From: Magnetococcales bacterium DCbin2
Lineage (GTDB): Bacteria > Pseudomonadota > Magnetococcia > Magnetococcales > UBA8363
Length of the DNA stretch: 63,773 nucleotides
Direction: 5' to 3'
NCBI GenBank assembly: GCA_002753615.1
Contig: PEAO01000003.1
Coordinates: forward strand, 1-63,773
Part shown: positions 1 through 63,258 of the stretch, piece after piece
How the letters are laid out: the number at the start of each line of letters is the position of its first letter
Position numbering within the stretch: position 1 is the first letter of the stretch
The notes under the pieces: generated by a model
What the model was told of the DNA's origin: nothing
Seen by the model: only the letters and a program-made list of their open reading frames with translations
Databases searched by the model: none
Position numbers and translations under genes: made by a program

Positions 1-108
1 CAATCCCCCAGACCCCTTTTTTCTTTTAATAATATTATATTGGTATCAATATGTTACGTAATATCAATACGCCATGGTGCCTCAGAAATTTCAAATGCGA
101 TTGCCCTG
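1..108. mobile_element. Right end of fold-back (MITE-like) element, copy A, truncated by window edge
   Basis: CAATCCCCCAGACCCCTTTTTTCTTTTAATAAT arm followed by ...ATTTCAAATGCGATTGCCCTG; closely similar to 63068-63176. Confidence 0.85.
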
Positions 109-6200: not shown

Positions 6201-6214
6201 GTAGAGGTGACCCG

Positions 6215-8100: not shown

Positions 8101-10029
8101 ATGAAGGATACCAAGAAAACGGCAAGCTTTGGCGTCCGTTCCGCTTTTTTGATGATCGGTCTGGTTTTGCTGATCATGGCCACGCTGTCCGGTCTTTCAC
8201 TCTGGCTCTCCACAGAACTTGAAAATCGTGACGCCGATACCCTTGATCTTGCCGGACGGCAGCGGATGCTGTCACAAAAAGCAACCAAAGAGTTTTTTAT
8301 CTATCTGGCTGAAGGGTCGCAAAAAACACGGGATTCCCTCGAAACGACCCTGTGGGCCTTTGACGCCACACTGACCGGTCTGATCCGAGGGGAAAAAGCC
8401 CCCCAAGCCCTGGATAAAAACAGCCCCCATCTCCCCATGAACCGCCCGTCCGCAGCGGTCAACCAACAATTGGTCCGGGTAGCCGCCATCTGGGAACCAT
8501 TCCGCAAGGATATGGAATATGGATTGGGAAAGCCTGAAGATCTGGAAGCGGTCAAAGCAAGATTGATCGACTCCAATATCGCTTTACTCTCCGAGATGAA
8601 CAAGGCGGTCGGTATGATGGCCGAGGAATCATCCGAGCGGACACAACACGTCGTCCGTTCCCTCACGACCGTCGTAGCCATCTCCGTGTTGGTCGTCATT
8701 GCGGGTCTTGTACTGCTCCTGATTATTTTTCGAAATATCTTCCGTCAGTTGGGTGGAGAACCCGCCGAAGTGACCGCCCTCGTGCAACGTGTCGCCCGTG
8801 GGGATTTATCCATCGCCTTCGATGAACGCCGCGCCCGAACAGGGGTTTATGGGGCCATGAAGGAAATGGTCGATAACCTGAAGAAAACCGTCCATTCCCT
8901 CATCGAGGTTGGGGAAAATGTCGTCCAGGAAAGCGGCAAGGTCAATACATCAGCACAAGAAATTTCCGAAGGGGCCACCGAACAAGCCGCCTCCGTAGAA
9001 GAGACTTCCGCCTCAGTGACCGAAATGGCGGCCAGTATCCAACACAACACCGACAATGCAGTCAATACCGAACGTCTGGCCCGAGATAACGCCGGAAAAG
9101 CCAAAGAGGGTGGCAAAGCGGTGGCGGGTGCGGTCACCGCCATGAAAGAAATTGCCCAAAAAATATCCATCATTGAAGAAATCGCCCGCCAGACCAATCT
9201 TCTGGCCCTCAATGCCGCCATCGAAGCCGCACGCGCCGGCGAACATGGCAAAGGGTTCGCCGTAGTCGCCGCCGAAGTGAGAAAACTTGCCGAACGCAGT
9301 CAAACCGCCGCCGGCGAAATCAATCAAATTTCAAAATCCAGCGTCGCCGTGGCGGAACAGGCGGGAAATATCCTGGCCAACCTCGTACCCGATATTGAAG
9401 AAACAGCGCGTCTGGTACAAGAAATCGCCGCCGCTTCGCAGGAACAAAATCAAGGGAGCGGCCAAGTCAACCAGGCGATTCAACAGCTAGACCAAGTGAT
9501 TCAACAAAACGCCGCCGCCGCTGAAAGAATGGCGGAATCCGCCGATCATCTGGCGGTTGAAGCCAACCGCCTCCAAGGGGTCATCGCCTTTTTCCAACTC
9601 GACGATTCCGGTTCCGATGCCGTCCTCATGCCGTGGTCCGACAAGTTATTGGTCAACATCACCGAGGCGGATCGCCAGCATCGTCACTTGGTAGACTTGG
9701 TAAACAACATTTATCGGGCCGTCAAACAGGGGCAGATCGAACATGGTCTGAAAACCCTTGTGCCGGAATTGGTCGATTATACCGTGAAACATTTTAAGTT
9801 TGAGGAAGACCTTTTCGAGAAACATGGCTATCCCGAAGCGGTCCAGCATCAACAGGCCCATAAAAAATTGGTGCAACGGGTCGTCGATTTCATCACCCAA
9901 TTGGAAAAGGGGGGAGACCACTCCATCGCCTTTGAACTTTTGGGGTTCCTGAAATCGTGGCTCATCGAGCATATCATGGGGACCGATACCCGTTATGGTC
10001 GTTGGCTCAATGAACGTGGCATTCATTAG
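8101..10029 (+). CDS. Methyl-accepting chemotaxis protein with PilJ/NarX-like periplasmic sensor and C-terminal bacteriohemerythrin
   Basis: Two TM segments; [12 protein letters not shown]-box; [23 protein letters not shown] signalling core; H..HFKFEE..H...[11 protein letters not shown] hemerythrin ligands. Confidence 0.92.
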
Positions 10030-10338
10030 GGCGTGTTGACATTCAATAAAATTATTAAAAGAAAAATTGGGTCTGGGGGATTGCCCCCAGGGTTTTGATT
10101 TTAAATAAAAAACTTCCATTTTTTCTTTTGACTTTGTTTTCGTCATTAAATAAAAAGCTTAAATGCGAAAATATTTTTGTTTAAATTCAAAACCAAAGTC
10201 AAAAGCGGAACATGGAAACCTTTTTATTTAAATTCAAAGACAACAATCAAAACCCTGGGGGCAATCCCCCAGACCCCTTTCTTCTTTCAATAATTTTCTA
10301 GGGGGTGTCAATTAATTATCGAATGTCAACACGCCCTA
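10027..10338. mobile_element. Fold-back MITE-like element, copy B, with matched TIRs and TA flanks
   Basis: TA-GGGCGTGTTGACATTC ... GAATGTCAACACGCCC-TA; inner arms GGGTCTGGGGGATTGCCCCCAGGGTTTTGA / TCAAAACCCTGGGGGCAATCCCCCAGACCC. Confidence 0.88.
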
Positions 10339-27435: not shown

Positions 27436-27499
27436 CTTCTCTATGCAAGAACGAGTCAGAGATGTCCGCATATCTCAAGATTAAAGGCAGAAAACGCCC

Positions 27500-29148: not shown

Positions 29149-29444
29149 TAACCGTTCAGACCCCCCCTAAAAAACTATTAAAAAGAAAGAAGGGGTCTGG
29201 GGAATTCTTTCCCCAGGGTTTTGACTTTAAATAAAAAGCTTCAATTCTTGCTTTTGAATTTGTTTTTGACTTTACATAAAAAGCCTAAAGCTGGAAATGT
29301 TTTTGTTTAAATTCAAAGAAAGGTCAAAAACAAAGTATTGAAGCTTTTTGTTCAATATCGAAAAAAGAGTCAAAACCCTGGGGGCAATCCCCCAGACCCC
29401 TTTTTTCTTTCAATAATTTAAAAAAGGGGGGGCTGAACGGTTAC
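29149..29444. mobile_element. Fold-back MITE-like element, copy C, with TAACCGTTCAG / CTGAACGGTTAC ends
   Basis: Shared inner arms; AT-rich interior similar to copy B; outer inverted repeat differs from copy B. Confidence 0.85.
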
Positions 29445-36508: not shown

Positions 36509-36641
36509 ACGATTACGATGAGTCGGAGGGATCACCCCTCGGCTTAGACGTCTATCAAACCAAAGAGTTGCCCAGATCGCTGCATCTGGTTAACGAATGT
36601 GACAAAGGATAAGCAAAGTCTGGCGTTTTTAGGAGACTAAC

Positions 36642-39698: not shown

Positions 39699-39702
39699 AG
39701 GT

Positions 39703-39731
39703 TTGCTATTTTCTCCGTCAAGTGGTACGTT
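39703..39731 (+). promoter_or_regulatory. Putative sigma70 promoter internal to the RM operon
   Basis: TTGCTA-N17-TACGTT with TG upstream of the -10. Confidence 0.55.
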
Positions 39732-39737
39732 GTCCGT

Positions 39738-39805
39738 GTATCCGCCCTTTGGAAGTACGCCCGCTCAACAATCCCGAGCGTGTGCCGAAACCCTGGGGCT
39801 TTTTT
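39738..39805 (+). ncRNA. Candidate structured small RNA / leader upstream of the NYN gene
   Basis: Nested pairing GCCCT/GGGGC, GTACG/TGTGC, CGCTC/GAGCG followed by T6. Confidence 0.5.
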
Positions 39806-39822
39806 GTTTTAGGGGGCCGGTC

Positions 39823-40665: not shown

Positions 40666-43444
40666 TAAATCCCTGGAAGTCGATACCCTGACCCACACGG
40701 AGGCGCACCGTCGCAACATCCCCACGGCGGAATTTCAGTCTGTGATGAAGCAGGATGAACAGTGTCCCATCCGCATCGCTTATGAGCGGCGCAATCGGGA
40801 TCTTGATCCGCAACTGGTGTGGCGCGGCAAAGATGAGCAGGACTGGTCTGATCTGGTGGTGCATGCCCCACCGCTCTACATCCAGGAGAAGGTGCATCCC
40901 AGGGTGTTGATCGAGGATCTGCGTCGGGAGAGCGAAGCCCGTTCCAAGGAGAATGAATCCCAACAACCGAAATTTCAATTTCGACTTGATCTTTTTTCCG
41001 ACTTCAACGGCCTGCCCAAGGAGGCCACCACCACCGATTTTTATCAGCATGACGGCAACTGGACCAACCGCATGATCCTGGGGGACTCTCTCCAGGTGAT
41101 GGCCTCCCTGGCCGAACGGGAGGGGCTACGCGGGCAGGTACAGTGCATCTATTTGGATCCACCCTACGGCATCAAATTCAACTCCAACTTTCAGTGGTCC
41201 ACCACCAGCCGGGATGTGAAGGACGGCAACAAGGACCATATCAGCCGCGAGCCGGAGCAGGTAAAAGCGTTCCGGGATACCTGGCGGGATGGCATCCATT
41301 CGTACCTCACCTACCTGCGGGACCGGCTCACCGTAGCCAGAGATCTGCTGGCGGATTCAGGCTCCATTTTTGTGCAGATTGGGGATGAGAACGTCCACAG
41401 AGTCAGATCTTTATTGGATGAAATTTTTGGTGAAGATCACTTCGTTGGGGAAATAGTCTTTAAAAAAACAGGGGGGCAGAGAACAACATTGATTGCTGGT
41501 GTCTCGGACTATGTCCTCTGGTACGGAAAGAATAAAGATCTGTTGAAATTTAGAAGACTGTTGAGTTCAAAGGTTTCTGATGATGGAGATGCCACTTTTC
41601 AAGGATACGACAAGGTTGATTTTGGAGACGGCACTGAAGGCAAAAAGACAGACCCTCGTTGGGCAAAGCATGGTGAGGGTATGTTGTTTCAAGCAACTAG
41701 CATGACATCTCAAAACCCTGGATCACGATTCCCTGTCGATTATTTTGGGAAAGAGTGGAACCCATCAGGAACTCAATGGTGGAAGACAGATAAAGATAGA
41801 TTTGAACGATTAATCAAGGCTAGACGAATAGTGGTAAGCGGAAAGTCATTAAGGTATAAGAGGTTTCTAGAAGATTATGCAGCATTCTCATTGACTCTAT
41901 TTTGGGAAGACACTGCAGGTGGTGTTGGTGCTGACAAAGTATATGTCGTGCAAACAAGCACCAAAATTGTCGAACGGTGTATTTTAATGTCAACAGATCC
42001 GGGGGACTTGGTTCTTGATCCAACATGCGGCTCTGGTACAACTGCATATGCTGCAGAGCAATGGGGGAGACGTTGGATTACCATCGACACATCCCGTGTT
42101 GCACTGGCATTGGCTCGTTCTCGTGTGATGGGTTCGAGATACCCTTGGTTTCTTCTGTCTGACAGTCTTGAAGGCCAAGAGAAAGAAGCGGAGATCACCC
42201 GAACCGCGCCGGTTTCCACCCCCACCCACGGCAATATCCGCCAGGGCTTCGTCTATGAACGGGTTCCCCACATCACCCTGAAGTCCATTGCCAACAACGC
42301 CGAGATCAATGTGATCTGGGACCGCTTCCAGGAGACCCTGGAACCCTTACGGGAAGCCCTCAACGCCGAAGTTGGCCAATCCTGGCAGGAGTGGGAAATC
42401 CCCCGCGAAGCCGAGAAATCCTGGTCCGCCAAAGGCAAGGATCTGCACACACATTGGTGGGATCTCCGTATCAAACGACAAAAAGAAATCGACGCATCCA
42501 TCGCCGCCAAGGCGGACTTTGAGTTCCTCTACGACAAGCCCTATGTGAACCGCTCCAAGGTCCGCGTAGCCGGTCCCTTCACCGTGGAGAGTCTCTCCCC
42601 CCACCGAGTACTCGCCGTGGACCAGGACGATGAACTGCTGGATCCGAACAGAACCCAGGCACATACCCACGACAAGGCCGATTTCGCCGCCATCATCCTG
42701 GAAAACCTGAAAACCGCCGGGGTTCAGCAGGCGCACAAGGAAGACAAAATCACCTTCACCAGCATCACCGGCTGGCCGGGCCAGTACATTGGTGCCGAAG
42801 GACGCTACATGGAGGAGGACAAAGAACGCCGCGCCGGTATCCTCATTGGTCCAGAGTTCGGTACCGTCTCCCGCCCCGATCTGGTCAGTGCCGCCCGGGA
42901 GGCCGGTGAGGCCGGCTTCAATACCCTCATCGCCTGTGCCTTCAACTTTGACGCCCACTCTGCCGAGTTCAATCAACTGGGCCATATCCCAATACTCAAG
43001 GCACGCATGAACGCCGACCTACACATGGCCAACGACCTCAAAAACACTGGCAAGGGCAACCTTTTCGTCATCTTCGGCGAGCCGGATATCGAGATACTCA
43101 AAGCCGATGATGGCCAAATCCAGGTGAAGATCAACGGCGTGGATGTCTTTAAACCCCAGACCGGCGAAGTGGAGTCTAGCGGTCCCGACGGCATCGCCTG
43201 CTGGTTCATCGACACCGACTACAACGAAGAGAGTTTTTTCGTAAGGCACGCCTATTTCCTCGGTGCCAACGATCCCTACAAGGCACTCAAAACCACTCTC
43301 AAGGCAGAAATCGACCAGGAAGCCTGGGATTCCCTCCACAGCGATCTCTCCCGTCCCTTCGGCAAACCCAAATCCGGGCGCATTGCCGTCAAGGTCATCA
43401 ACCACCTCGGCGATGAGGTGATGAAGGTGTTTGCAGTCGAATAA
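40646..43444 (+). CDS. Type III-like modification methyltransferase (beta-class N6/N4)
   Basis: YLDPPYG preceding VLDPTCGSGTT; adjacent to the Res-like gene. Confidence 0.92.
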   Translation: MARKSADKSLEVDTLTHTEAHRRNIPTAEFQSVMKQDEQCPIRIAYERRNRDLDPQLVWRGKDEQDWSDLVVHAPPLYIQEKVHPRVLIEDLRRESEARSKENESQQPKFQFRLDLFSDFNGLPKEATTTDFYQHDGNWTNRMILGDSLQVMASLAEREGLRGQVQCIYLDPPYGIKFNSNFQWSTTSRDVKDGNKDHISREPEQVKAFRDTWRDGIHSYLTYLRDRLTVARDLLADSGSIFVQIGDENVHRVRSLLDEIFGEDHFVGEIVFKKTGGQRTTLIAGVSDYVLWYGKNKDLLKFRRLLSSKVSDDGDATFQGYDKVDFGDGTEGKKTDPRWAKHGEGMLFQATSMTSQNPGSRFPVDYFGKEWNPSGTQWWKTDKDRFERLIKARRIVVSGKSLRYKRFLEDYAAFSLTLFWEDTAGGVGADKVYVVQTSTKIVERCILMSTDPGDLVLDPTCGSGTTAYAAEQWGRRWITIDTSRVALALARSRVMGSRYPWFLLSDSLEGQEKEAEITRTAPVSTPTHGNIRQGFVYERVPHITLKSIANNAEINVIWDRFQETLEPLREALNAEVGQSWQEWEIPREAEKSWSAKGKDLHTHWWDLRIKRQKEIDASIAAKADFEFLYDKPYVNRSKVRVAGPFTVESLSPHRVLAVDQDDELLDPNRTQAHTHDKADFAAIILENLKTAGVQQAHKEDKITFTSITGWPGQYIGAEGRYMEEDKERRAGILIGPEFGTVSRPDLVSAAREAGEAGFNTLIACAFNFDAHSAEFNQLGHIPILKARMNADLHMANDLKNTGKGNLFVIFGEPDIEILKADDGQIQVKINGVDVFKPQTGEVESSGPDGIACWFIDTDYNEESFFVRHAYFLGANDPYKALKTTLKAEIDQEAWDSLHSDLSRPFGKPKSGRIAVKVINHLGDEVMKVFAVE

Positions 43445-43487
43445 TGAAAATCATCAGAACGACACCAACAGGCAAAGGATCTACAAA

Positions 43488-45116
43488 ATGAACGGCCTAC
43501 GTGAGGCACTAACTCCCCTCGCTGCCCGGATGCCACGGGTTGTTCGCGAACATGAAATCCTTCGGGTGGTTGGCGTGTTGAAAAGTAGAGAGGATCAGCA
43601 AACCAATGCCACAGCTCGCAAGGAAATCCTGGCTTGGTTGCAAAAGCGGAGTGGTGGACGTTTGCCTAAAGAGGCATGGGAATGTAAGAGGTTTGAATAT
43701 TTATCCGGTGGCAGGAATAGCGTAGGTGTCCGTATCGCAACCCCAGAGATCGACCTTTGGTCAGTACGTGCGGATGATCCTGATAAAAATATTCCTGGTC
43801 GCACATGGACAACAGAAGTAACAGTGGGCGGGACTTCCGGTGAATTGCCTACCTTCACGGCTCGCCTGATTGTCAGCACCACGGAAAACGATTTCGTGGA
43901 CGGGTCACAAGGCGCGGCAGTACCAGGTTTTGTGAAACAATTAGCAACAAAGCTGGGGGTACAGCGGGACGGTTATCATTTCTCGCCTGACCCACGATTG
44001 ATTGACTCGGAAGAGGATTCTGAATGGCTAATCAACACGCTGTTAGACCCTTCTCGCCACATTCCAGTCTTCATATTGTCTGTTCCCAATAATGCGGAAC
44101 ATCAAACGGCACCACTACTTGATGCGAACAACCTTAGCAAAGCAACCATTGGAATTGGAATCGTCGCTATCACAACCCCAAAATCTAGCTGGGCACTCAC
44201 GCATAGGTTTGGCAAACAACGGTCGGTGTTTAATGGTGCAGCAAGAACTTATCTCCCCGGCTTTTCGGATGACTCAGACCCCTATAGCCACAAACTGGCA
44301 TTGGCAGATCAATTAGCAACGCCTAAAGGGAAAACGGATTGCCTCCGGTTGATGAGGAACTTGGCAGCGGCGGAAAGCTTACGGCACACGCGACTTGGAA
44401 AGGATGTACTGGCATTTTCTGCCATCCGCAATGCGTCGATACAGATAAACCAAAAAAATCTTGAGGAGTTTGGAGCGAGTAGTGATATCAAACTTGATGC
44501 TGCAACTACACGTATTCGTGCGTTGGAGGAACGGGTCGAGTCGCTGGAAAAGGATAATGAACATTATCTTGATGAGTACCTAAAGGAATATCAAAGAGCG
44601 GAAGATGCTGATAAGCGTAGTTTTTCTCTTACATTTCGGATTCAGCAACTCAATAAGCAAATTAAGGATAGTGGGGCAGTTCCCGACACCAATATTACTT
44701 TTCCCAAGCAATGGCGTGATTTTGGCGACTGGTGCGACCAGCATCTCGCTGGACGGGTAGTGCTTGCTTCCGCTGCCCGTCGTGCTGTTCAAGAACCAGA
44801 GTATAATGATATTGAACTTGCTGCACGGTGCTTATTATGGCTCGCAAACGATTATCGTGAAAGCAGGCTGGGGCAATCTGATCTCCGAGTTCGTGAGGCT
44901 CCCATTGAGTCTGGTGTACGCAACGCAGCCTGTGGATCTGATGAATACGAAATCAATTGGAACGGACAACGGCACGTCGTCGATTGGCACATAAAAAATG
45001 GCGGCAATACCCGTAACCCATCTCGGTGCCTGCGCATTTACCACCTTTGGGATCCTGCCAGCCAGCAAGTGATCGTCGCTGATATGCCTGCTCACAGGCG
45101 TACAGGCGCGACCTAA
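43488..45116 (+). CDS. Hypothetical protein with coiled coil and possible C-terminal RelE-like domain
   Basis: Long ORF; coiled coil IRALEERVESLEKD; C-terminal WHIKNGG..RCLRIYHLWD..VIVADMPAH; start 43488 or 43431. Confidence 0.7.
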   Translation: MNGLREALTPLAARMPRVVREHEILRVVGVLKSREDQQTNATARKEILAWLQKRSGGRLPKEAWECKRFEYLSGGRNSVGVRIATPEIDLWSVRADDPDKNIPGRTWTTEVTVGGTSGELPTFTARLIVSTTENDFVDGSQGAAVPGFVKQLATKLGVQRDGYHFSPDPRLIDSEEDSEWLINTLLDPSRHIPVFILSVPNNAEHQTAPLLDANNLSKATIGIGIVAITTPKSSWALTHRFGKQRSVFNGAARTYLPGFSDDSDPYSHKLALADQLATPKGKTDCLRLMRNLAAAESLRHTRLGKDVLAFSAIRNASIQINQKNLEEFGASSDIKLDAATTRIRALEERVESLEKDNEHYLDEYLKEYQRAEDADKRSFSLTFRIQQLNKQIKDSGAVPDTNITFPKQWRDFGDWCDQHLAGRVVLASAARRAVQEPEYNDIELAARCLLWLANDYRESRLGQSDLRVREAPIESGVRNAACGSDEYEINWNGQRHVVDWHIKNGGNTRNPSRCLRIYHLWDPASQQVIVADMPAHRRTGAT

Positions 45117-45129
45117 CCGAGGAACACAA

Positions 45130-47208
45130 ATGGAGTTTCGCATAGCCGATACCTTCACCGACTCGTTGGCCAAACTGACCGGACAGGAGCAAAAGGCGGT
45201 CAAAACCACAGCCTTCGACCTGCAAATGGATTCCGTCAATCCGGGCATGAGCTTTCACAAGCTGGACCGGGCCAAAGATCCCAATTTTTGGTCCGTGCGG
45301 GTCAATGCGGATATCCGCCTTATCGTCCATAAAACCGCCTCCAGCCTTTTGCTGGTCTACGCTGGCCACCACGACAAAGCCTACAAGTGGGCGGAGTGCC
45401 GCAAGATCGAACGCCACCCCAAGACGGGTGCCGCTCAGTTAGTGGAAATCAGGGAGACGGTCGAAGAGATCGTCATTCATCAGACACGGGTAGAAAAACA
45501 GCCCGCTCTCGCAAAACCATGCATCTTTGCCAATTTGAGCAAGGGGGATCTCCTGGGATTCGGCGTACCCTCCGAGTGGGTAAACGAGGTTCGCAAAGCC
45601 ACCGAAGACTCCTTGTTCGATATCGCTGAACACCTGCCACAGGAAGCCACCGAGGCACTGTTGGAATTGGCCGTTGGCGTGCAACCCAAAGTCGCTCCCG
45701 TCACCGCAGAATCCGACAACCCCTTCGACCACCCTGATGCCCAACGCCGTTTCCGCGTCATGGCCAATCAGGAAGAGTTGGCTATCGCCCTCAATGATCC
45801 CTGGGAGAAATGGACCGTCTTCCTTCACCCCTCCCAGCGCCAATGCGTTGAAAAGGACTACACCGGCCCATCTCGTATTTCCGGCTCTGCGGGAACGGGA
45901 AAGACCATCGTTGCGCTCCACCGCGCTGCCCATCTGGCGCGGAAACACCCTAATGCGAAAATCCTTCTCACTACTTTTTCGTCTACTCTGGCCAGTACGC
46001 TTCAGACCAAACTCAACCGGTTGGTGGGAAACGAATCCGACATGGCCCGGCGGATCAAAGTCCGTTCAATCAAACGGATTGGTGAGGATCTGTACGCCCA
46101 ATCCCATGCCACTCCAAATATTGCCGACGATGCAACCATTCGCAACCTGTTAAGCCAGCATGCCGCTTCCCTGGGTACTCACCACTTCTCCGATCCATTC
46201 TTGCTGGGGGAATGGAAGGATGTGGTGGACGCTTGGCAATTGAAAAGTTGGGAAGATTACCGTGATGTGCAACGGCTTGGACGCAAAACGCGAATCGGCG
46301 GCAAACAGCGTGAGATGTTGTGGGCGATCTTCGCCACAGTCAGGGCTGAACTGGATGACCGAAACCTCATGACCTGGGCGGACCTGTTCGGAAGGGTGAC
46401 ACAGGAGATCCTCGACCAGGCAATGACCCCGTTCGATTTTGCCGTGGTGGACGAAGCCCAGGATCTTGGCGTGGCCGAAGTGCGATTCTTGGCCGCCTTG
46501 GGATCTGGCCGTTCAAACGCGCTCTTCTTCGCTGGAGATTTAGGGCAACGCATCTTCCAGCAGCCCTTCTCATGGAAATCGCTGGGTGTGGATATCCGTG
46601 GCCGGTCCGGCACCCTCCGCATCAACTACCGTACATCCCACCAGATTCGCAGTCATGCTGACCGTTTGCTTCCTTCAGCCATCTCCGATGTGGACGGTAA
46701 TGATGAAAACCGCATCAAAACGATTTCGGTTTTTGATGGACCTCCCCCTCAGGTTAAAATCGTTGACAGCATCGAGGAGGAATCTGCCGTTGTTGCCGGA
46801 TGGCTCATGCAGCAGTTGGATGATGATTTGCAGCCCCATGAAATTGGCGTGTTTATCCGTTCCCCTGCACAACTGGATAGAGCTAGAAATGCTGTAAAAA
46901 TGGCAGGTGCAACCGCCCTTGAATTGGATAACGGAGCGGAGACCGAAGCCGGGAAAATATCCGTCTGCACCATGCATTTAGCTAAAGGACTAGAGTTCCG
47001 GGCCGTGGCTGTTATAGCCTGCGACGATGAGGTATTACCCCTTCAGGAGAGGATTGAAGCTATTTCTGACGATGCTGACCTTGAAGAAGTCTATAACACG
47101 GAGCGACATCTCCTTTATGTTGCATGTACCCGCGCTCGTGATCACCTGCTGGTCACTGGCGTGGATCCGGCATCCGAATTTCTCGACGATTTTGGATTGG
47201 AACGGTAG
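45130..47208 (+). CDS. UvrD/SF1 helicase with N-terminal RelE-like domain
   Basis: GSAGTGKT, VVDEAQD, NYRT, HLAKGLEF, LYVACTRAR; N-terminal FWSVRVNADIRLIVH. Confidence 0.88.
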   Translation: MEFRIADTFTDSLAKLTGQEQKAVKTTAFDLQMDSVNPGMSFHKLDRAKDPNFWSVRVNADIRLIVHKTASSLLLVYAGHHDKAYKWAECRKIERHPKTGAAQLVEIRETVEEIVIHQTRVEKQPALAKPCIFANLSKGDLLGFGVPSEWVNEVRKATEDSLFDIAEHLPQEATEALLELAVGVQPKVAPVTAESDNPFDHPDAQRRFRVMANQEELAIALNDPWEKWTVFLHPSQRQCVEKDYTGPSRISGSAGTGKTIVALHRAAHLARKHPNAKILLTTFSSTLASTLQTKLNRLVGNESDMARRIKVRSIKRIGEDLYAQSHATPNIADDATIRNLLSQHAASLGTHHFSDPFLLGEWKDVVDAWQLKSWEDYRDVQRLGRKTRIGGKQREMLWAIFATVRAELDDRNLMTWADLFGRVTQEILDQAMTPFDFAVVDEAQDLGVAEVRFLAALGSGRSNALFFAGDLGQRIFQQPFSWKSLGVDIRGRSGTLRINYRTSHQIRSHADRLLPSAISDVDGNDENRIKTISVFDGPPPQVKIVDSIEEESAVVAGWLMQQLDDDLQPHEIGVFIRSPAQLDRARNAVKMAGATALELDNGAETEAGKISVCTMHLAKGLEFRAVAVIACDDEVLPLQERIEAISDDADLEEVYNTERHLLYVACTRARDHLLVTGVDPASEFLDDFGLER

Positions 47209-47571
47209 CAGACTATTTTTCTATGACTTGCAAACGAAATGGACCTGAGGGTCAGAGAGAAACCTTGCACTTTGATCGCCACGTCATCGAAGTGCCACAA
47301 TCAGACCTCCAGACCATTTCCTGCCACATCTACCAAGAATTTAACATGAAATTTTATATTCATATTACAATCAATTAGATACATGATGTTTTTTTGAATT
47401 GGCACCCCTTCCACTTCGTCACAATTAACCTTTTGAATTTACTTGCATATGATATAATAGGCTCGCGTTTGGCATAAAATCGGAAGGAATATTTAAACAA
47501 ATTAATGCTATCTCAACGCAAAAATATGGAAAGATTTTGAGCCATTTTAGGATATCCACGGAGAGTTGCCA

Positions 47572-54485: not shown

Positions 54486-54635
54486 TTTTTTCGGCTCCAT
54501 TTGGATTCTGGGGTCTTGGTTCGTAATTTCATCAGTCGATGGTGAAATTACGGGTGGCTTTTTTCTTGTTGTGACGATGTAGACAGCCTGCCATTCCTGG
54601 TCATCAAATACCAAGTTTAGACTTGCCTGATCCCA

Positions 54636-55529: not shown

Positions 55530-56026
55530 CAGGGCAATCGCATTTGAAATTGGCATATCCAAGTGTCTCGGAAATAATAAATTATTAAAAGAAAAAAGGG
55601 GTCTGGGGGATTGCCCCCAGGGTTTTGACTTTGCTTTTGACTTTGCTTTTGACTTTGCTTTTTCACGCGCCCCTTCTCCCGAAGCATTTTTCCCGTGCCT
55701 TTTCTTTTTAAAGGGAAAAATGCGCAGGCGCGCGCCTTGGTTTGCCTTTTTTCGCGGTTTTTGCGAAAAAAGGCAAACACAATGCAATGTTGAAGGGGTA
55801 AAAACAGTGCATTATGCTTGATGTTTTTCGCAGAAGGCGCGAAAAACATCAAGCTAAGGCGTGCGCCCTGCGCATTTTTTTTCGCAAAAATAAAAGGCGC
55901 GAAAAAAAATGCTTCGGGATAAGGGGCGCATGAAAAACAAAGTCAAAAGCAAAGTCAAAACCCTGGGGGCAATCCCCCAGACCCCTTTTTTCTTTCAATA
56001 ATTTTCTAGGAGGAGTGAACGGCTAC
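55530..56026. mobile_element. Fold-back element, copy D (long, multi-hairpin), mismatched outer ends
   Basis: Left CAGGGCAATCGCATTTGAAAT, right GTGAACGGCTAC; whole interior is a nested inverted repeat; homologous to copy E. Confidence 0.88.
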
Positions 56027-56074
56027 GAATCAAGACCCCGGAATCCAAATTGAGCCTAAAAAATGTGGGACAAC

Positions 56075-56106
56075 AAAAAAAGGCCGCAAACAGCGCGGCC
56101 TTTTTT
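56075..56106. terminator. Bidirectional intrinsic terminator
   Basis: A7-GGCCGC-loop-GCGGCC-T6, downstream of the minus-strand gene ending at 56134. Confidence 0.75.
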
Positions 56107-56133
56107 CCAAGAAATTCCAGACAAATAGCGTGA

Positions 56134-56451
56134 TCAGCTACCCCAGTTGGAGTATTTTTCACAGATTTTATTAATTTTTGCCCCTTTTTCTGACTCGGAG
56201 AACTTGGCGAGGTCACCCTTGAAATCCTCAGGGGTCTCATTCCACACACACTCGCAAAAAGCCGCCATTTTGGTCTGACCAGCGATCGGGCTGGGGTCAT
56301 TACCACCCTCCCAATTCTTCGTGGAATAGGCCAAGCAAGCCTGATACTGAGGATCACTGCTGGGGACATCATTATAACTGCCAGCGGCAAAGGCCAAGCT
56401 GGTAACGCCGAGGGTTAAAACGGATGCAATCGCAAGCACGGTTTTTTTCAT
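56134..56451 (-). CDS. Small secreted protein with four cysteines
   Basis: MKK-hydrophobic-AFA signal peptide; C..FCEC..C; own terminator. Confidence 0.8.
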   Translation of the reverse strand: MKKTVLAIASVLTLGVTSLAFAAGSYNDVPSSDPQYQACLAYSTKNWEGGNDPSPIAGQTKMAAFCECVWNETPEDFKGDLAKFSESEKGAKINKICEKYSNWGS

Positions 56452-56557
56452 GGTATGTCACATCCTATGAGGGTTCAAGGGCCACGGTCCGACTGACCGA
56501 AGGGGGGCATAATGCCCTTCGGAAAAAAAAAAGTCAAAGGACGTTGCGATGGATCGA

Positions 56558-59329
56558 TTACCGCACCCCTGCCAACTGCAATACGTTCTGGGCCTCCTTG
56601 GACATTCCCTGAACCAAAAGCAATTCGACATAATCGGCCTTGAGACGGGGATCATCCGGTTTTTCCCGCAACAATCCCGCATAGCCCTTTAACGCCTCCG
56701 CCCACCGCCCAACACGCTGGAGCATACGAACCCAGGTCGTCCGTTCGGCATAGGTCGGGTTTTCCACCGTTTTCATCCGCGCCATCGCCTTGAGATAATA
56801 GGGTTTGGCCTTTTCCACCATCCCCAAGGAACGATAGACCTCCGCCAGATAGAAAAAAGGTTCGTAACCATCATCATACCGCGCCAGATACCCCCCCAAA
56901 TAACCCACCACACTCTCCCACTCGCCCGCGTAAAAAGCCATGTACCCCAACCGCTTCAACGCAATCCGATCATCCGGTTTCTGTCTGACGATTTCCTTGT
57001 AAATCGCACCGGCACTCTTGGGAAGATTTTTTTCCTCCGCCAAATTCGCCAACGCCTTCAACCGGGTAATGGATTTCGTTGCCCTGAGTTCACGTTCCAG
57101 AATCTCCTCCATCCTGTGAGTATCCCCAACCCACGCCAACGCTCGCAAATAGGCATCCACCAACCCAGGATGACTCCCCGGCTGCGGTAAACGCGGACCT
57201 GCCAAAAACACCGCCTGCCGCGCCGCACCCACACCGGTCAGAATTTCCACCCACCCCCCCAGATCCTGATCCTTGGAACGGTTGGCTCGTTCCAGCAACC
57301 AATCCAAAGCTTCCTTTTCGGGACGCGGACCCAAGACGTACAGCAACTGCGCCACCTCCGGGCTATCGGGTGGTGCCAGGGAAGCGGCCTCCAGGAAGGC
57401 CCGGATCCCCATCCCCTTCTCCCCCACCTCCAATGCCAACATCCCATACTGCCGACGGCTTTCCGCATCCCCCCCCTGCCCGGGGGTATGGAGCCGTGAT
57501 TGCAAAATACTTATCATCTGGGTGCGTACCGGCTGTTTGGCGCGCCACGAAGCGATGACCACCTCCTCATAAAACCGTTTGCCATCCTCATCCAACAAAA
57601 ATTGAACCGATTTTAACCGTTGCAACGCCGCCATCGCCTGACCTTTGGCCAAATCCAACCGCGCCAACAACAACAGCCGCCCCAACCCCTCCCGGCCCAA
57701 CAGGTTCATCGGATCGTTCATCGGTTGCGCCATCAATCTTCCCACCGCCATTTCCGCCAGTTTTAATTGTTGCGTATCCAAGGCGCGATTGGCGATATCG
57801 GCCAAAAAATCATTGGGTAAGGAAGGGCGTTCGGAAACCCAGGCCATGCACGCTTCCTGACGCACCCCACTCCCCACCATCAAAATCAATCGCGCCTCCT
57901 CAAAGCGTGGACCATTGCGAATGTTTTTTAATTGTTCAAAAAACCTCAATCCACCCGCCACATTTTTCACCTGGATGAAATAACCCGCCAAATCCCGGAG
58001 GAAGGTATCGGCCACCTGCGGATCCCGCGCCATGGCCATCATCATCGCTCCCCCCTCCTCCACCCTTCCTATTTTCACCAACAATGCCGCCAGACGTAAC
58101 CGCCATTCCGGTTCCTTCGTTGCCATCCGTCCCCGCTGCAACCATTCCTCAAGCACCTCCAAACTGGAACCGGCCCGCAATTGCAACTCGGCCACCAACA
58201 CCGGAAACGATGTCAAAAATTTTTTCGCCATGGTTTCCAACGCACCCCGCGCCACAAAGCCCCCCCCATGGTTGACGATGGCATCCCCCAACGCCCTCTG
58301 CAACCAGAAAGGTCTTTCCCCCTCCGGCAAGGTTGCCATGATCCGTGTCGCCACGCCATACCGACGCAATCCAATCGCCAACTCCGACAGTAACGTCACC
58401 CCAACCACCGGCAATCGCCCCTTGCGAAAATAACTTTCTAAAACCGGCCAAGCCACCGCTTCCCGTTTTGTTCTGGCCGCCACCCGTCCCCATTGCAACA
58501 CCACTTCCAAGGAATCGGGCATCAACCGCCGCAATTCTTCCACCCAAACCCACGTCAACTCCGGCGATCCTCCCTGAAGCATCATATCGGTCATCACCGA
58601 TAACGAACGGTCATCCCGCTGCCATGTCAGCCAACTCCGCGCCTCAGCCAGGGCATCCTCCTTGCGCCCCAGGGTGAGCAACGCATAGACCATCATCTGC
58701 ATGGTATCGGGATCCAATCCTCGTGGGATCCGCTTTTTCAAGGCCAGTAATACCTCGACCGCCCGCCCATAATCCCCCCCAGACATCAGCAACCGCGCCA
58801 AATCACGATACCCCGAAGCATGTTCCGGGTACCGTCGCAGCATCTCCTCCAAAATTTTCGTCTCTTTGGTGATATCGGCGTTAAAGCTGTATAAATGCGC
58901 CAGTTGTTGCAACACATCGATGGAGGGATCCAAACGGTGCAATATTTCCAGGTTTGCCAAATAATCCATGGGCCTTTGCGCATATTGATACAGTTTTCCC
59001 AACTCCTTGCGCCCTTCAACGTGGTCCGGCTGGCCTGTCAAAAACGTTTCCAATACCGCAATGGCCTGATCCACCTGGCCATTCTGCAAATAGAGGTTGG
59101 ATAGCGGAACGACAGCCGAATCGGGGAGTTTTTTTCCCCCTTCCATTTCACGTTCAAAATAGGCCAGTGCCTTGGAATAATCCTGGTCACGCAGATGCAT
59201 CAACGCCAACGTCTCCAGAGATGGCAATAACATCATCCCCAGAGCGATTCCTAACAAACACAATACGAAACCTAGAAAATAATATCGAAGCACACCATTT
59301 TCCTGAAATATCTGAAAACCGGGCCGCAT
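56558..59329 (-). CDS. Large membrane-anchored TPR protein (PelB-like scaffold candidate)
   Basis: N-terminal TM, many helical TPR-like repeats; divergent from Pel-like enzymes. Confidence 0.72.
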   Translation of the reverse strand: MRPGFQIFQENGVLRYYFLGFVLCLLGIALGMMLLPSLETLALMHLRDQDYSKALAYFEREMEGGKKLPDSAVVPLSNLYLQNGQVDQAIAVLETFLTGQPDHVEGRKELGKLYQYAQRPMDYLANLEILHRLDPSIDVLQQLAHLYSFNADITKETKILEEMLRRYPEHASGYRDLARLLMSGGDYGRAVEVLLALKKRIPRGLDPDTMQMMVYALLTLGRKEDALAEARSWLTWQRDDRSLSVMTDMMLQGGSPELTWVWVEELRRLMPDSLEVVLQWGRVAARTKREAVAWPVLESYFRKGRLPVVGVTLLSELAIGLRRYGVATRIMATLPEGERPFWLQRALGDAIVNHGGGFVARGALETMAKKFLTSFPVLVAELQLRAGSSLEVLEEWLQRGRMATKEPEWRLRLAALLVKIGRVEEGGAMMMAMARDPQVADTFLRDLAGYFIQVKNVAGGLRFFEQLKNIRNGPRFEEARLILMVGSGVRQEACMAWVSERPSLPNDFLADIANRALDTQQLKLAEMAVGRLMAQPMNDPMNLLGREGLGRLLLLARLDLAKGQAMAALQRLKSVQFLLDEDGKRFYEEVVIASWRAKQPVRTQMISILQSRLHTPGQGGDAESRRQYGMLALEVGEKGMGIRAFLEAASLAPPDSPEVAQLLYVLGPRPEKEALDWLLERANRSKDQDLGGWVEILTGVGAARQAVFLAGPRLPQPGSHPGLVDAYLRALAWVGDTHRMEEILERELRATKSITRLKALANLAEEKNLPKSAGAIYKEIVRQKPDDRIALKRLGYMAFYAGEWESVVGYLGGYLARYDDGYEPFFYLAEVYRSLGMVEKAKPYYLKAMARMKTVENPTYAERTTWVRMLQRVGRWAEALKGYAGLLREKPDDPRLKADYVELLLVQGMSKEAQNVLQLAGVR

Positions 59330-59453
59330 ATCCTACTTTTCGGATGGAATGGCAATAAAAAATATAAAAATCGCCTGGTCGCGTTCCTCCCCTTGTCTCC
59401 AGGGTTTGTCACAAGGCATCCTATGCATCAATGTTTATTTTTGGATGGATACC

Positions 59454-60296
59454 ATGCGCCATTTCCTCTTCCGAACTTTTTTGTTGCCCATCATGGCCCT
59501 TTTCGCAACTACAACTCCAGCCAGCGGTGCCTCCTTCGTCATTTACTACAGCGATCAGGCACCCGTGACCCACTTTGAACCCTTCGACCTCATCGTCTTT
59601 GATACCCTCTACCATCCGCCACTGGAACGCCTGAAAGAACGGGGAAAAACCATCCTCGGTTACCTCAGCCTGGGAGAAGTGGAAAACCATCGACACCACT
59701 TTGCCGATGCCAAGGGACAGGACTTGCTATTTTTTGAGAACGAAGATTGGCCTGGAAGCTTTTTCGTCGATTGCCGAAATCCCCTGTGGACCAAGATGGT
59801 GATCGAAATTCTCATCCCCGATATCCTGCAACAAGGGTTTCATGGTCTGTTCATCGATACCATGGATAATCCCGGCTACCTGGAAGATTTAGACCCCAAA
59901 AAATACCAAGGGATGCGCCTGGGGGGGATCAACCTGATCAAGGCGATACGACGCCATTATCCCGATATTCCCATCATGATCAACCGTGGCTTTGATCTGC
60001 TTGATCACCTCATCTACGATGTGGATAGCATTCTGGCCGAATCCACCCGCAGTACCATCGACCCGAAAACCCAAACCGCCATCCTCACCCCGGATGCCGA
60101 TTATGAGGCCATCACCACCCAACTGCGCCGTTACAAGGAGATCCGCCCACACATCGGCCTCTATTCCATCGATTATTGGGATCCCGCCGACCTGAAAGGA
60201 CGGGCAAACATCTATCGCCAACAACGAGAACATGGATTCATCCCCTACGTCGCCACCCAAAAACTGGATCAGGTTATTTTTGAGAACAAGCCATGA
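59454..60296 (+). CDS. Endo-alpha-1,4-polygalactosaminidase-like glycoside hydrolase (GH114/GH166, PelA hydrolase-like)
   Basis: GYLSLGE, QGFHGLFIDTMD, NRGF, LAES, IDYW motifs; signal peptide. Confidence 0.85.
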   Translation: MRHFLFRTFLLPIMALFATTTPASGASFVIYYSDQAPVTHFEPFDLIVFDTLYHPPLERLKERGKTILGYLSLGEVENHRHHFADAKGQDLLFFENEDWPGSFFVDCRNPLWTKMVIEILIPDILQQGFHGLFIDTMDNPGYLEDLDPKKYQGMRLGGINLIKAIRRHYPDIPIMINRGFDLLDHLIYDVDSILAESTRSTIDPKTQTAILTPDADYEAITTQLRRYKEIRPHIGLYSIDYWDPADLKGRANIYRQQREHGFIPYVATQKLDQVIFENKP

Positions 60297-62650
60297 AAAT
60301 CAAGTTATTTTTCATGACCCTGCTGCTGATCATCATCCTCAGCCCCTCAGGCCGGGCCGAGGATGCCTCAGGGATCATCGTCCCCCGAGTCATCCTCTCT
60401 TTTTACGATTCCAAACAACATAACGGCGAACCCTGGTTCAGCAAAACCCATAAATTTGCCGAACTCCCCCTCAACCATCTTGGCTTGGTGGTCCGCTATC
60501 TGGATCTCAATGCCCCCCTCCCCGATCCCGCTACCCTGACCGACGTGCGTGGGATCATTCTTTGGACCATCGCCGACCGCATGGACAATCCCATCCCCTT
60601 TGCGGAGTGGATCACCCAGGCTGTCACCCAGGGTAAACGTCTGGTCGTTCTGGGCAATCCCCCATGGTCAGCCAACAATCAAGGGGAACCAACACCTTTT
60701 GAAATATTGGAAAAACTTTGGCGTGCCTTCGGATTTCAGTACAGTGAAGAGTGGATCTCTTTTACCCATAATCTGGAAATTGTTCAGCAAGATCCCACAA
60801 TGATCGGTTTTGAACATCCCCTACCCAAAGTTCTCCCTGAGTTTCCGCAAATGATCCCCAACAGTTCCGATGTCCGGTTGCATTTATCTGTCCGTGGCGT
60901 CAACGGGACGCAACAAGAAAACAGCCTTGTGGCAACCAATCCCAGAGGTGGTTATGCCGCACCCGATTATTTATTGTTCACCGCACCCGATCCTGAGGAA
61001 GATCATGAATTCGTACAATGGATCGTCAATCCATTTGCATTTTTTCGTCTTTCCTTTGCCACCGACGAACTACCCAAACCTGATGCCAGCACCCTCTCCA
61101 ATCGACGGATTTATTATAGTCATATCGATGGTGATGGTCTGCGCAATCTGACCGAGGTACGACCTTATAAAGACAAAGAGATGACTGCCGCCGAAGTGAT
61201 CCTCAAGGAGGCCATCGAAGGGTATCCCGATCTTCCCGTCTCTGTAGGGCCTGTGGTGGGCGATATCGACCCCGCTTGGTATGGTTCCAAAAAAACTATT
61301 CAAATCGCTAGAAAACTCCTGGCACCACCCCAGGTTGAGGCGGCCAGTCATACCTTGAGCCATCCCTTGGATTGGTCATTTTTTGATGATTATCGGGAAG
61401 CGGATGAAGTTCCGTTCCTTAAAAACTATCCCAAAAAAGATGAATTCAGCGCAACCAACCGCTTGTTGGAAGCCTTGGGATTGATGAAAAAAAAGCCAAC
61501 GGTTTCTCTGGATACCTCCCTGTGGAAACAAATCCCGGCCCGGGTGGATGATCCTGACAAAAAAAAAGAAACAAAAAGAGAACGTTATAATGACTACAAA
61601 ACACCACGGGCATACGGCATCAAACCATTTAATCTGGATGCCGAAATACGGGGAGCCAAACAGACTATTCAACAAGTGTTGCCCTCTGGAAAAAAAGTCA
61701 AGCTCATACAATGGTCGGGAAACACCCTCCCCTTTGAGCAGGCGATTCGGGTGGCGCGTTTGTCGGGGATGAATAACATCAACGGTGGTGACACCCGTTT
61801 TGATGCCAAATTTCCATCGGTGGCGTGGGTAGCACCATTAGGACGCACGGTGGGAAAGGAGTGGCAGTGTTATTCCTCAGCGAGCAATGAGAACACCTAC
61901 ACCAGTTTATGGACAGAGAAATTTTTTGGATTCAAACATTTGATTCATACCATCAAAAATACCGAATCGCCCAGACGATTGGTCGCCTTTAATATTTACT
62001 ATCATTTTTATTCGGGAGAGAAGCAGGCAAGTTTAAATGCGTTGAAGGAGAATCTGGATTATGCCCGGTCGCAGGGTTTGGCACCGGTTGCGGCGAGTTT
62101 TTATTCGGCCATTGCCCAGGGGACGGTCGAGGCACAAATTTTCAAACTTTCGCCGGGGGAGTGGTCGATTCGCAACCGTGGGCAATTACAGACCATCCGT
62201 TTTGATCATGGCACTTTGTTGCAGGTGGACATGGAAAAATCTTCAGGAATTGTCGGCCAGCGGCATTACCAGGGGAGTTTGTATGTCGCCTTGGATCAGG
62301 AGATCTTGGAACCGCGTATTGTGATCATCCCTTATGACACGCCGGCACTCCCCCCCCCTTCTTCGGTACCCTATCTGGTGGATGGGCGATGGCGTATTTT
62401 TGGAATAAAAAGATCTTCGGGGGACATGTTTGAGTTTCAGGCCCAGGGATTTGGCCGGGGGGATATGACGTGGCGCGTGCCGGTGGGGGGGCATTTCATG
62501 ATTGAGATGTTTGACGCCAAGGGGCGATCCTTGAACCGGATTTCCCGGGAGACCGATGGCAGCGGGGGGGTATTACGGATGAGTCTGCCGACATCGGCCT
62601 TGGAACCGATACGAATCGTCGTAACCCGACAGCATGAACAAGAAAAATAA
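60293..62650 (+). CDS. PelA-like polysaccharide deacetylase
   Basis: Signal peptide; YYSHIDGDG, SHTLSHP, WSGN, NGGD, NENTYT, IYYHFYS motifs. Confidence 0.8.
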   Translation: MKIKLFFMTLLLIIILSPSGRAEDASGIIVPRVILSFYDSKQHNGEPWFSKTHKFAELPLNHLGLVVRYLDLNAPLPDPATLTDVRGIILWTIADRMDNPIPFAEWITQAVTQGKRLVVLGNPPWSANNQGEPTPFEILEKLWRAFGFQYSEEWISFTHNLEIVQQDPTMIGFEHPLPKVLPEFPQMIPNSSDVRLHLSVRGVNGTQQENSLVATNPRGGYAAPDYLLFTAPDPEEDHEFVQWIVNPFAFFRLSFATDELPKPDASTLSNRRIYYSHIDGDGLRNLTEVRPYKDKEMTAAEVILKEAIEGYPDLPVSVGPVVGDIDPAWYGSKKTIQIARKLLAPPQVEAASHTLSHPLDWSFFDDYREADEVPFLKNYPKKDEFSATNRLLEALGLMKKKPTVSLDTSLWKQIPARVDDPDKKKETKRERYNDYKTPRAYGIKPFNLDAEIRGAKQTIQQVLPSGKKVKLIQWSGNTLPFEQAIRVARLSGMNNINGGDTRFDAKFPSVAWVAPLGRTVGKEWQCYSSASNENTYTSLWTEKFFGFKHLIHTIKNTESPRRLVAFNIYYHFYSGEKQASLNALKENLDYARSQGLAPVAASFYSAIAQGTVEAQIFKLSPGEWSIRNRGQLQTIRFDHGTLLQVDMEKSSGIVGQRHYQGSLYVALDQEILEPRIVIIPYDTPALPPPSSVPYLVDGRWRIFGIKRSSGDMFEFQAQGFGRGDMTWRVPVGGHFMIEMFDAKGRSLNRISRETDGSGGVLRMSLPTSALEPIRIVVTRQHEQEK

Positions 62651-62656
62651 TGGTCG

Positions 62657-63176
62657 GTTCCATGTCAATATGCCTTGGAAAAGATAAATTATTAAAAGAA
62701 AAAAGGGGTCTGGGGGATTGCCCCCAGGGTTTTGACTTTGATTTTGATTTTGCTTTTGACTTTGCTTTTCCACGCGCCCCTTCTCCCGAAGCATTTTTCC
62801 CGTGCCTTTTCTTTTAAAGGGAAAAATGCGCAGGCGCACGCCTTGGTTTGCCTTCTTTCGCGGTTTTTGCGAAAGAAGGCAAACACAATGCACTGTTGAA
62901 GGTGCTAAAACATGGCATTATGCGTGATGTTTTTCGCAAAAACCGCGAAAAACATCACGCTAAGGCGCGCGCCCTGCGCATTTTTTTTCGCGAAACAAGA
63001 AGCGCGAAAAAAATGCTTCGGGATAAGGGGCGCGTGAAAAGCAAAGTCAAAATCAAAACCCTGGGGGCAATCCCCCAGACCCCTTTTTTCTTTTAATAAT
63101 ATTTTTTATTGATACCAATAAAATAACGAATATCAATACGCCATGGTGCCAAAGAATTTCAAATGCGATTGCCCTG
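62657..63176. mobile_element. Fold-back element, copy E (long, multi-hairpin), mismatched outer ends
   Basis: Left GTTCCATGTCAA (boundary approximate), right ATTTCAAATGCGATTGCCCTG; interior homologous to copy D. Confidence 0.88.
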
Positions 63177-63258
63177 CCCAGGTCGTGGTCACCCATTGAT
63201 TCTCAACACAAAACGTGCCAAGAATGGTTCGGAAACTTCAACCTTTTGGAAAAGCCCC

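Follow-up and report, generated by a model that had tools for sequence, protein, structure and literature searches.

A Magnetococcales fold-back element with a constant core, nested insertion-sequence ends and probable serial capture by active transposases

A repeat found in high copy number in Magnetococcales bacterium DCbin2 is most probably a non-autonomous fold-back element, in which a constant core carries nested ends of IS5, IS66, ISAs1 and IS1595 as the outcome of serial capture by active transposases. Each of these families leaves its own footprint (for IS66 in two of ten pairs), and survival by transposase switching is therefore likely. The element is likely to be a variant of the MITEs, with footprints and empty sites pointing to movement in trans by partner transposases. 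Here, we describe the copies in the window (the whole stretch of 63,773 nucleotides that was analysed), in the assembly that contains it (G000, a short-read draft of 3.36 Mb that has 402 contig ends and is 78% complete) and in a close relative used for synteny (G004, likewise a short-read draft). In the open-access literature we found neither an account of this Magnetococcales repeat nor a case of one core under the ends of several IS families.

The initial annotation had proposed five copies with shared inner arms, and all five are present in the window. They are given below, with copy D divided into its parts and with a related remnant.

1..108, minus strand: copy A, one arm, truncated by the contig end; ISAs1-type end with an IS5-type end nested within
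10027..10338, unstranded: copy B, IS5-ended, with a TA duplication; site empty in G004
29149..29444, unstranded: copy C, an IS66-type end at each side, no target duplication
54493..54526, plus strand: coreless remnant of IS1595 and IS66 ends, directly after thiL
55530..55576, plus strand: left end of D, ISAs1-type, agreeing with the ISAs1 terminal repeat at each of the first 22 bases
55577..55629, plus strand: left core arm of D, with an A-tract, GGGG-TCT, a 7-8-bp G/C hairpin and GGTTTTGA
55630..55953, unstranded: spacer of D, long form, with 12-bp repeats and internal hairpins
55954..56006, minus strand: right core arm of D, from the arm search
56007..56026, minus strand: right inner end of D, IS66-type, from the match to IS termini
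56027..56056, minus strand: right outer end of D, IS1595-type, from the match to L406 and L410
62670..63176, unstranded: copy E, ISAs1-ended; site empty and syntenic in G004

Copies B-E measure 296-527 bp, and an Rfam search of the whole window at gathering score returned one tRNA only, with no match to the element. The end of copy A agrees with the left end of an ISAs1 element (L007) at 32 of 34 bases, and its IS5 end starts at end position 36. The matched ends described earlier for B and C are confirmed: the element proper of B (10029-10336) has GGGCGTGTTGACATT ends and TA flanks, and C has (G/A)TAACCGTTCAG ends. Copy C has a left arm of variant type and a left junction in common with G004, and is located on the margin of a decayed island in tyrA. 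Copy D folds back on itself along its entire length (-201 kcal/mol, z = -21.5, with 0 of 100 shuffles as good); its left end abuts host DNA exactly, and a pattern scan finds its left core arm terminator-like on either strand. The IS66-type right end reported for D is real but was drawn too short, the IS1595-type end further out (56027-56056) having been missed; this outer end is identical to a coreless end in L406 over 29 of 29 bases and to the IS1595 element L410 over 21 of 21. Copy E had been proposed as a mismatched copy with GTTCCATGTCAA as its left end. The G004 alignment runs through window position 62669 and picks up again at 63177, so GTTCCATGTCAA belongs to the host and adjoins an ISAs1 end that has been trimmed: E starts at 62670, where only the inner portion of an ISAs1-type end is retained, the outer ~33 bp of that end and the left target copy having been lost, and at the right of E an IS5 end is nested within an ISAs1 end. 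The remnant after thiL coincides with a synteny break relative to G004. A composite transposon reaching from this remnant at 54493 to D and carrying a class D beta-lactamase was rejected, as there is no duplication and G004 already has that gene beside a TPR gene.

Hundreds of copies per genome had been forecast, and the 422 arm matches in G000 bear this out; they comprise 88 complete in-contig elements and 246 single arms, and the genome copy number of the element is ~200 or more. The 88 elements span 67-492 bp from arm to arm and, like MITEs, are short and without a transposase gene. Matches to the element occur in 25 of 41 genomes of the order Magnetococcales, records that match the exact core pattern are titled Magnetococcales, and further end types surround the same core in other genomes of the order.

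That one core carries the ends of several transposase families was proposed in the initial annotation from resemblance to IS5, IS66 and ISAs1, and both the proposal and the labels are now tied to transposase-bearing elements, with IS1595 as a fourth end family overlooked at first. The match to real IS termini spans 17-34 bp. ISAs1 is represented by L007, an element of 1,416 bp with a 374-aa transposase (NCBIfam, 404 bits) and a 10-bp duplication; IS5 by L011, an element of 846 bp with TA; IS66 by L017, L019, L023 and L024, which combine IS66 transposase matches with a GTAACCGTTCA-type end; and IS1595 by L410, a 1,056-bp element without flanks that scores 86 bits against a cut-off of 75. The IS5 partner elements presumably belong to the IS427 group. 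ISL3 was discarded as the origin of the fourth end, since both ISL3 loci of the genus lack it and its source is IS1595. The 477-aa open reading frame adjoining one end of this fourth type encodes a sensor protein. The terminal repeats of the element thus equal those of autonomous IS, with the autonomous partners lying in congeners or on a metagenome contig; in the 78% complete G000, a search that covered ISAs1, IS66 and IS5 found no intact partner transposase (ISAs1 is a broken remnant and IS66 a fragment) and no match to the IS5 transposase (PF13340).

Target duplications differ by end type, at 10 bp, TA, 8-9 bp and 8 bp. The 152 ISAs1-type ends give 28 exact 10-bp pairs, with none at 7, 11 or 12 bp and none in 30 shuffles; 76 of the ends have no partner, and six of seven in-contig pairs carry the duplication. 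Such copies form an ISAs1-dependent subfamily, with a terminal match of 22-34 bp and the same 10 bp as L007. IS5 pairs have TA at both sides in three of six cases and the empty site of B is clean; terminal repeat and TA together mark an IS5-dependent subfamily in L011-L014, copy B and those three pairs. For IS66, a duplication of 8-9 bp is present in two of ten pairs in G000 and absent in eight, copy C included; elsewhere it is seen in L097, agrees at seven of eight bases in the autonomous L017 and is lacking in L023. The IS1595 family duplicates 8 bp, a value found in two of three pairs (C68 and L318, not L400), and the ends and transposase of L410 with the duplications in C68 and L318 define an IS1595-dependent subfamily. 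Targeting of ISAs1-ended copies to arms was considered and set aside: 4 of 152 flanks fall within an arm, compared with 0.5% genome-wide, an excess accounted for by the mainly intergenic position of the insertions that survive (an open frame is hit by 7 of 38, where random placement would give 80%).

The ends are layered, IS5 inside ISAs1 and IS66 inside IS1595, and the composites employ both natural ends of the outer IS. An IS66 layer within a long IS5 end was also considered and is ambiguous, as subterminal repeats of IS5 could explain it. Insertion into an IS or MITE, suggested earlier as a capture route, is consistent with the nesting. The free interchangeability of ends that had been proposed is contradicted by their pairing, as 24 of 28 named pairs are matched and four mismatched, where 19.8 mismatches were expected. 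In the mechanism we propose, an ended copy would insert into an IS or a short derivative of one, deletions would cut the host IS back until its terminal repeats remain as ends of 20-35 bp, and the composite would then spread by the new transposase in trans, most recently that of ISAs1. The predicted intermediate, a core inside a full-length IS, was not seen.

The core could instead be a REPIN-like unit with an HUH mover of its own (RAYT-type) that inserts bare and meets IS ends or MITEs as passive targets. We regard this as improbable, even though the element consists of two short palindromes in inverted orientation with a spacer between them, is intergenic, has strongly conserved arms and is present in hundreds of copies, and even though coreless ISAs1 and IS1595 MITEs exist (C18:15364-15578, L319). 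Arms without a named end are indeed the largest class (175 of 422), and 20 of 88 elements are bare at both sides. These bare ends are, however, staggered, keep IS remnants, are mostly common to G004 and in some cases cut into host genes (L132): 106 of 161 stop 20-29 nt outside GGGT, a pile-up inflated by an arm profile biased towards copies that keep the A-tract, 37 retain at least 30 nt of an end and 18 break further in. Moreover, none of the 32 Y1-transposase loci examined (29 order-wide and three in G000, all in draft genomes) has an arm beside it, which leaves no RAYT partner among them, and composite ends recur as dozens of near-identical copies with fresh duplications, which shows that they spread as units.

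Under serial capture, the bare copies would be old ones that lost their ends by deletion while their arms were retained against gene 3' ends, probably as two-way terminators or mRNA-end hairpins, the terminator role being suggested by the pattern scan. Bare arms differ from the consensus at 1.6 of 31 bases and ISAs1-ended arms at 1.2. With gene calls from our own simple model, bare arms face gene 3' ends in 104 cases versus 54, with the stop inside the arm or at most 20 bp away in 70 of the 104, compared with 45 versus 68 and a median of 80 bp for ISAs1-ended arms. Erosion is not one-way, since at C14:27075 the G004 copy kept its end and lost its core.

Mismatched copies had been read as marks of recombination, which is supported in part: the two that are interpretable mark local deletions, not long-range breakpoints. 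There are four hybrids, of which D and C23 are interpretable, C29 is common to G004 and C102 carries no call. Synteny with G004 is kept at D and C23 while ~0.48 kb and ~1.4 kb of DNA, respectively, are replaced, which identifies both as local deletions; the direction of the change at C23 is fixed by an intact 505-aa open reading frame in G004. Nearby pairs of copies would recombine via their cores, with loss of the intervening DNA and mismatched ends as the result; the core being palindromic, it can act as a repeat in either orientation. Gene conversion among copies in place would swap ends and keep arms uniform with no need for deletion. At the C129 site the end is of IS1595 type in G004 but of IS66 type in G000, the C28:10272 site holds each genome's own arm type in G002, G006 and G007, and arms of old and young copies are equally uniform, all of which agree with conversion. 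It cannot, however, position an end at the precise point of a host junction that lies 0.5-1.4 kb away, as in D and C23, or generate family-specific duplications; as the overall explanation it is hence quite unlikely, and conversion is likely a contributor with the main cause elsewhere.

It is very improbable that the mixed and bare ends are chimeras created when short reads were assembled across the repeat. An arm does lie within 250 bp of 221 of the 402 contig ends, and no single contig of the sequencing runs bridges the whole of D or E. Reciprocal target duplications, proposed as a test for mismatched copies, were found in one set only, and this set may itself be chimeric: in C71:6408-6807 both ends are of one type, their duplications are partnered by the dangling ends of C59 and C57, and the copy looks like a mis-join. 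On the other hand, the nested ends fall within 100 bp, a pattern seen again in many copies and in several genomes, the two flanks of each of D, E and C23 are adjacent on one G004 contig, unlike those of a random mis-join, and contigs of runs X1 and X2 match every junction of D and the left junction of E with no differences. This junction check used contigs rather than reads, both runs may be the source sample, and runs with small word shares were left out. C14, C52, C116 and C192 are candidate breakpoints relative to G004; as the comparison is between two short-read drafts, they were not taken as established.

A further reading, held tentatively and as rather doubtful, makes the core a transposon parasite: the arm structure, a hairpin with a mirror third strand, would drive outward deletions, strip any IS to its ends and inherit its transposase, while the host keeps the arms as terminators. 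The arms fall short of the intrastrand triplex of Holder et al. (6-15 triads, loops of 1-6 nt, three blocks), with at least six perfect triads in 20 of 422 and four in 295; arm variants in G000, G025 and G039 attain six, with mirror covariation.

The element resembles bacterial MITEs (PMC3184786) in lacking a transposase, in sharing its terminal repeats with an IS, in target duplications, in a size under ~500 bp, in a long stem-loop, in filled and empty sites and in the many copies at gene 3' ends. The MITEs described there (Correia, ERIC, Nezha, Chunjie and R0/R2 of P. fluorescens) are each tied to one IS type, whereas the Magnetococcales core bears the ends of four families in nested layers and outlives them. 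With RAYT-moved REPINs (PMC3116915) it shares inverted short palindromes around a spacer, intergenic location, hundreds of copies, conserved arms and long persistence within a lineage; it differs in that 0 of 32 Y1 loci are arm-flanked, the hairpin foot is without a GTAG or CGTC tag and movement leaves DDE-type duplications. BoxC, PIT and TM triplex repeats (PMC4666352) are likewise G/C-rich, intergenic and variable in locus, with a mirror purine run, a 3-nt linker, a hairpin and inverted pairs. Unlike TM, the Magnetococcales arm is ordered purine-purine-pyrimidine and has only four triads in its main form; TM repeats are reported to have shown no link to mobile elements and no terminator activity. 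TIMEs (PMC4133298) are also non-autonomous and build mosaics, but hold their ends and vary their core, whereas this element holds its core and varies its ends. IS insertion into REPs (PMC1525189) similarly nests IS and palindromic repeats; there the IS lies within the repeat, while here the IS ends lie outside the core.

Over half of the contig breaks in G000 are accounted for by the repeat, and a MITE classification based on ends would divide this single lineage among several families. Once its partner transposase has gone, a MITE is expected to become immobile, and the longevity of REPINs is attributed to a domesticated RAYT. Serial capture of an element by unrelated transposases would be a third route to persistence, with the nested layers of ends as a record of its history. 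MITE pairs may also delete host genes, as with most of the 505-aa open reading frame at C23. If the core is a transposon parasite, it would have persisted across the order without a dedicated enzyme and would constitute a standing engine of gene deletion.

The five fold-back copies that the initial annotation placed in the window are all present. The element has a non-coding core of two inverted arms around a spacer, outside which lie either IS-like ends or no named end ('bare').

Copies of the fold-back element and other genes in the window
1-108: copy A
568-999: ORF with a PemK/MazF-like domain match, close to copy A
5290-7958: Abi-alpha domain gene and Sll1717-family ATPase, missing at the syntenic place in the close relative G004
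10027-10338: copy B
27360-27440 and 29475-29546: 5′ end of tyrA present twice, on either side of a decayed island that interrupts the gene and holds a Dam-type methylase gene, a 245-aa ORF and copy C (pheA lies next to tyrA in genomes G002, G005, G006 and G007)
29149-29444: copy C
36509-47547: 11-kb island with type III restriction-like helicase, NYN domain, N6/N4 methylase, unknown 561-aa ORF and UvrD helicase
54636-~55450 (-): class D beta-lactamase family gene adjoining copy D (NCBIfam bla_class_D_main, 261 bits, cut-off 250); homologous DNA has different neighbourhoods in G002, G004, G006 and G007
55530-56056: copy D
62670-63176: copy E

A search of the DCbin2 assembly (3.36 Mb, 201 contigs, 78% complete) with a profile of the 55-bp arm located 422 arms, nine of them in the window. 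These comprise 88 elements that are complete within a contig and 246 single arms, and therefore at least about 210 elements, in line with the hundreds per genome that had been forecast; an arm lies within 250 bp of 221 of the 402 contig ends. The predicted fold of copy D has an energy of -201 kcal/mol (z = -21.5), and an Rfam search gave no match except one tRNA. Among 41 genomes from the order, 25 match copy D, mainly in the stretch between the ends, and in an exact-pattern scan of GTDB contigs (14 of 64 parts scanned) all 80 loci among those listed are titled Magnetococcales or Magnetococcus.

Judged by sequence matches, the ends are real IS ends and belong to four families: ISAs1, IS5, IS66 and IS1595. 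The proposal that one core carries the ends of several transposase families is thus borne out by transposase-bearing loci of the first three, to which the fourth is added. A 1,416-bp element in G004 encodes a 374-aa ISAs1 transposase, has the same terminal repeat as the copies and is flanked by a 10-bp duplication, and a broken ISAs1 remnant lies behind the same type of end in DCbin2. An IS5 element of 846 bp, its transposase encoded in two frames, carries the 15-bp motif of the copies at either end, with TA flanks, and three further loci (L012-L014) have one IS5-type end each. At four loci (L017, L019, L023, L024) IS66 transposase matches lie beside an end of the GTAACCGTTCA type, C-run included. 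The fourth end type, outside the IS66 end of copy D, matches both ends of a 1,056-bp IS1595 on a metagenome contig (L410). The subgroup names IS427 and ISBst12 carry no weight as evidence here.

Target duplications and end pairing bear on how the ends are used. The 152 ISAs1-type ends yield 28 pairs with an exact 10-bp duplication, most of them across contig ends, as against three pairs at 8 bp, four at 9 bp and none at 7, 11 or 12 bp; 30 shuffles gave no pair, and allowing one mismatch yields 38 pairs that take in 76 ends. Complete DCbin2 elements show duplication in 6/7 ISAs1, 3/6 IS5, 2/10 IS66 and 1/1 IS1595 pairs, G004 shows it in one of two IS1595 pairs, and the G004 site corresponding to copy B is empty, with a single TA. 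The ends had been thought freely interchangeable, an idea that the pairing contradicts: only 4 of the 28 elements with both ends named are mismatched, where random pairing would give 19.8 (no shuffle out of 20,000 went as low). Each end type would appear to move as a unit, and the rarity of mismatched pairs, together with the type-specific duplications, argues for distinct subfamilies with a common core.

The ends are also nested. Those of copies A and E match an ISAs1 terminus over 31-34 bases and then run into an IS5 end, as does a second ISAs1-type end that matches the other natural ISAs1 terminus (29/30). At its right end copy D has IS1595 sequence for 29-30 bases and then an IS66 end; the right end of the element on contig C23 is the other IS1595 terminus. 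A core that already had ends may have inserted into an IS, or into a short derivative of one, the interior of which was then lost; this would leave the ended core between two different natural termini of the outer IS. Short coreless IS derivatives are present; no core was seen inside a full-length IS, and so insertion and interior loss are steps that we infer. In other genomes (one record set was omitted as a duplicate of loci already included) the core appears with further end types, including a doubled end of putative IS66 type in G028, and another record set has an end identical to that of L017. Sister hairpin units, clustered at loci in G028, G039, G018 and G007 (L029-L058, L351, L355), differ in their stems, share a G-run, short linker, hairpin and TTTTG tail, and form mosaics stacked with the arm.

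The element works like a MITE and shows the testable MITE features (PMC3184786), differing in its four putative partners. Its core is built like that of a REPIN (PMC3116915), and the RAYT test at 32 loci was negative; two tandem Y1-transposase-like matches 660 bp apart lie on contig C177 (2415-3400; L002, L003), with no arms nearby. TIMEs (PMC4133298) keep the ends and change the core, the reverse of the element here. Searches of open-access literature gave no description of this repeat family or of multi-family capture.

Mismatched copies had been read as marks of recombination. We compared some 25 of the 88 elements, picked by element density and end type, and some G004 elements, with the other genome (~95% identity). 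At copy E, G004 is continuous from 62669 to 63177 of the window. This makes GTTCCATGTCAA host DNA, and E, rather than being mismatched, has ISAs1 ends of which the left one is trimmed. One other ISAs1/IS1595 hybrid besides D was found:

C23:4733-5066: ISAs1/IS1595 hybrid

The outer ends of both hybrids meet host junctions exactly on both sides. In G004 the flanks of D lie close together, 470-490 bp apart, and the DNA between them has no match in DCbin2. The C23 site in G004 holds about 1,420 bp, which take in most of an intact 505-aa ORF; DCbin2 keeps the start of this ORF. The simplest reading is that two insertions were followed by recombination between their cores; recombination thus fits D and C23, but the flanks stay neighbours in G004, with ~0.48 and 1.4 kb replaced. 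Of the remaining hybrids, the IS66/IS5 element C29 is common to both genomes and the region of C102 is absent from G004. Both D junctions and the left junction of E are reproduced without differences in contigs from sequencing runs X1 and X2, which may be the source sample, and the right junction of E in those of X1 only, with the same proviso; none of these contigs spans a whole copy. One reciprocal duplication set was found: C71:6408-6807 has two ISAs1 ends of the same type, and the duplications beside them find their partners at the dangling ends of C59 and C57, reflecting either an inversion or a mis-join. As assembled, the flanks at C14, C52, C116 and C192 differ from those in G004, and G004 has one element in place of the 11-kb island and another where DCbin2 has 2.7 kb of other DNA; these are candidate rearrangements between two short-read drafts.

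By end class, the 422 arms divide as follows:

175 bare
114 ISAs1
70 IS5
42 IS66
5 IS1595
16 cut

Among 161 bare ends, 106 stop 20-29 nt outside GGGT, 37 retain at least 30 nt of end sequence and 18 are broken further in, positions on which the preference of the arm profile for copies with intact A-tracts bears. The bare copies checked are mostly common to G004, and two sites are occupied also in congeners at 75-85% identity, each by its own genome's arm type. Bare arms vary only slightly more than ISAs1-ended ones (1.6 versus 1.2 differences in 31 bases). In G004, C14:27075 has kept its end and lost its core and C101:6423 has lost its left arm, which speaks against one-way erosion.

The purine run ahead of the TCT linker varies, in three arm variants, as the mirror image of the hairpin purine strand (10/13, 7/8 and 5/6 copies). 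The variants represent at most two or three independent changes and offer a lead towards a possible intrastrand triplex arrangement. Holder et al. (PMC4666352) link such motifs to variable loci; by their six-triad definition, the main arm, with only four triads, does not qualify and 20 of the 422 arms do.

By our own gene calls, bare arms face gene 3′ ends 104 to 54, and in 70 of these 104 cases the stop codon lies in the arm or at most 20 bp away; ISAs1-ended arms face such ends 45 to 68, at a median distance of 80 bp. At L132 the last nine codons of a gene are replaced by an arm, which provides the stop. Both arms of copy D are predicted to be terminator-like on both strands (nine sites versus 1.8 in shuffles), and the arms are likely to be used as terminators.
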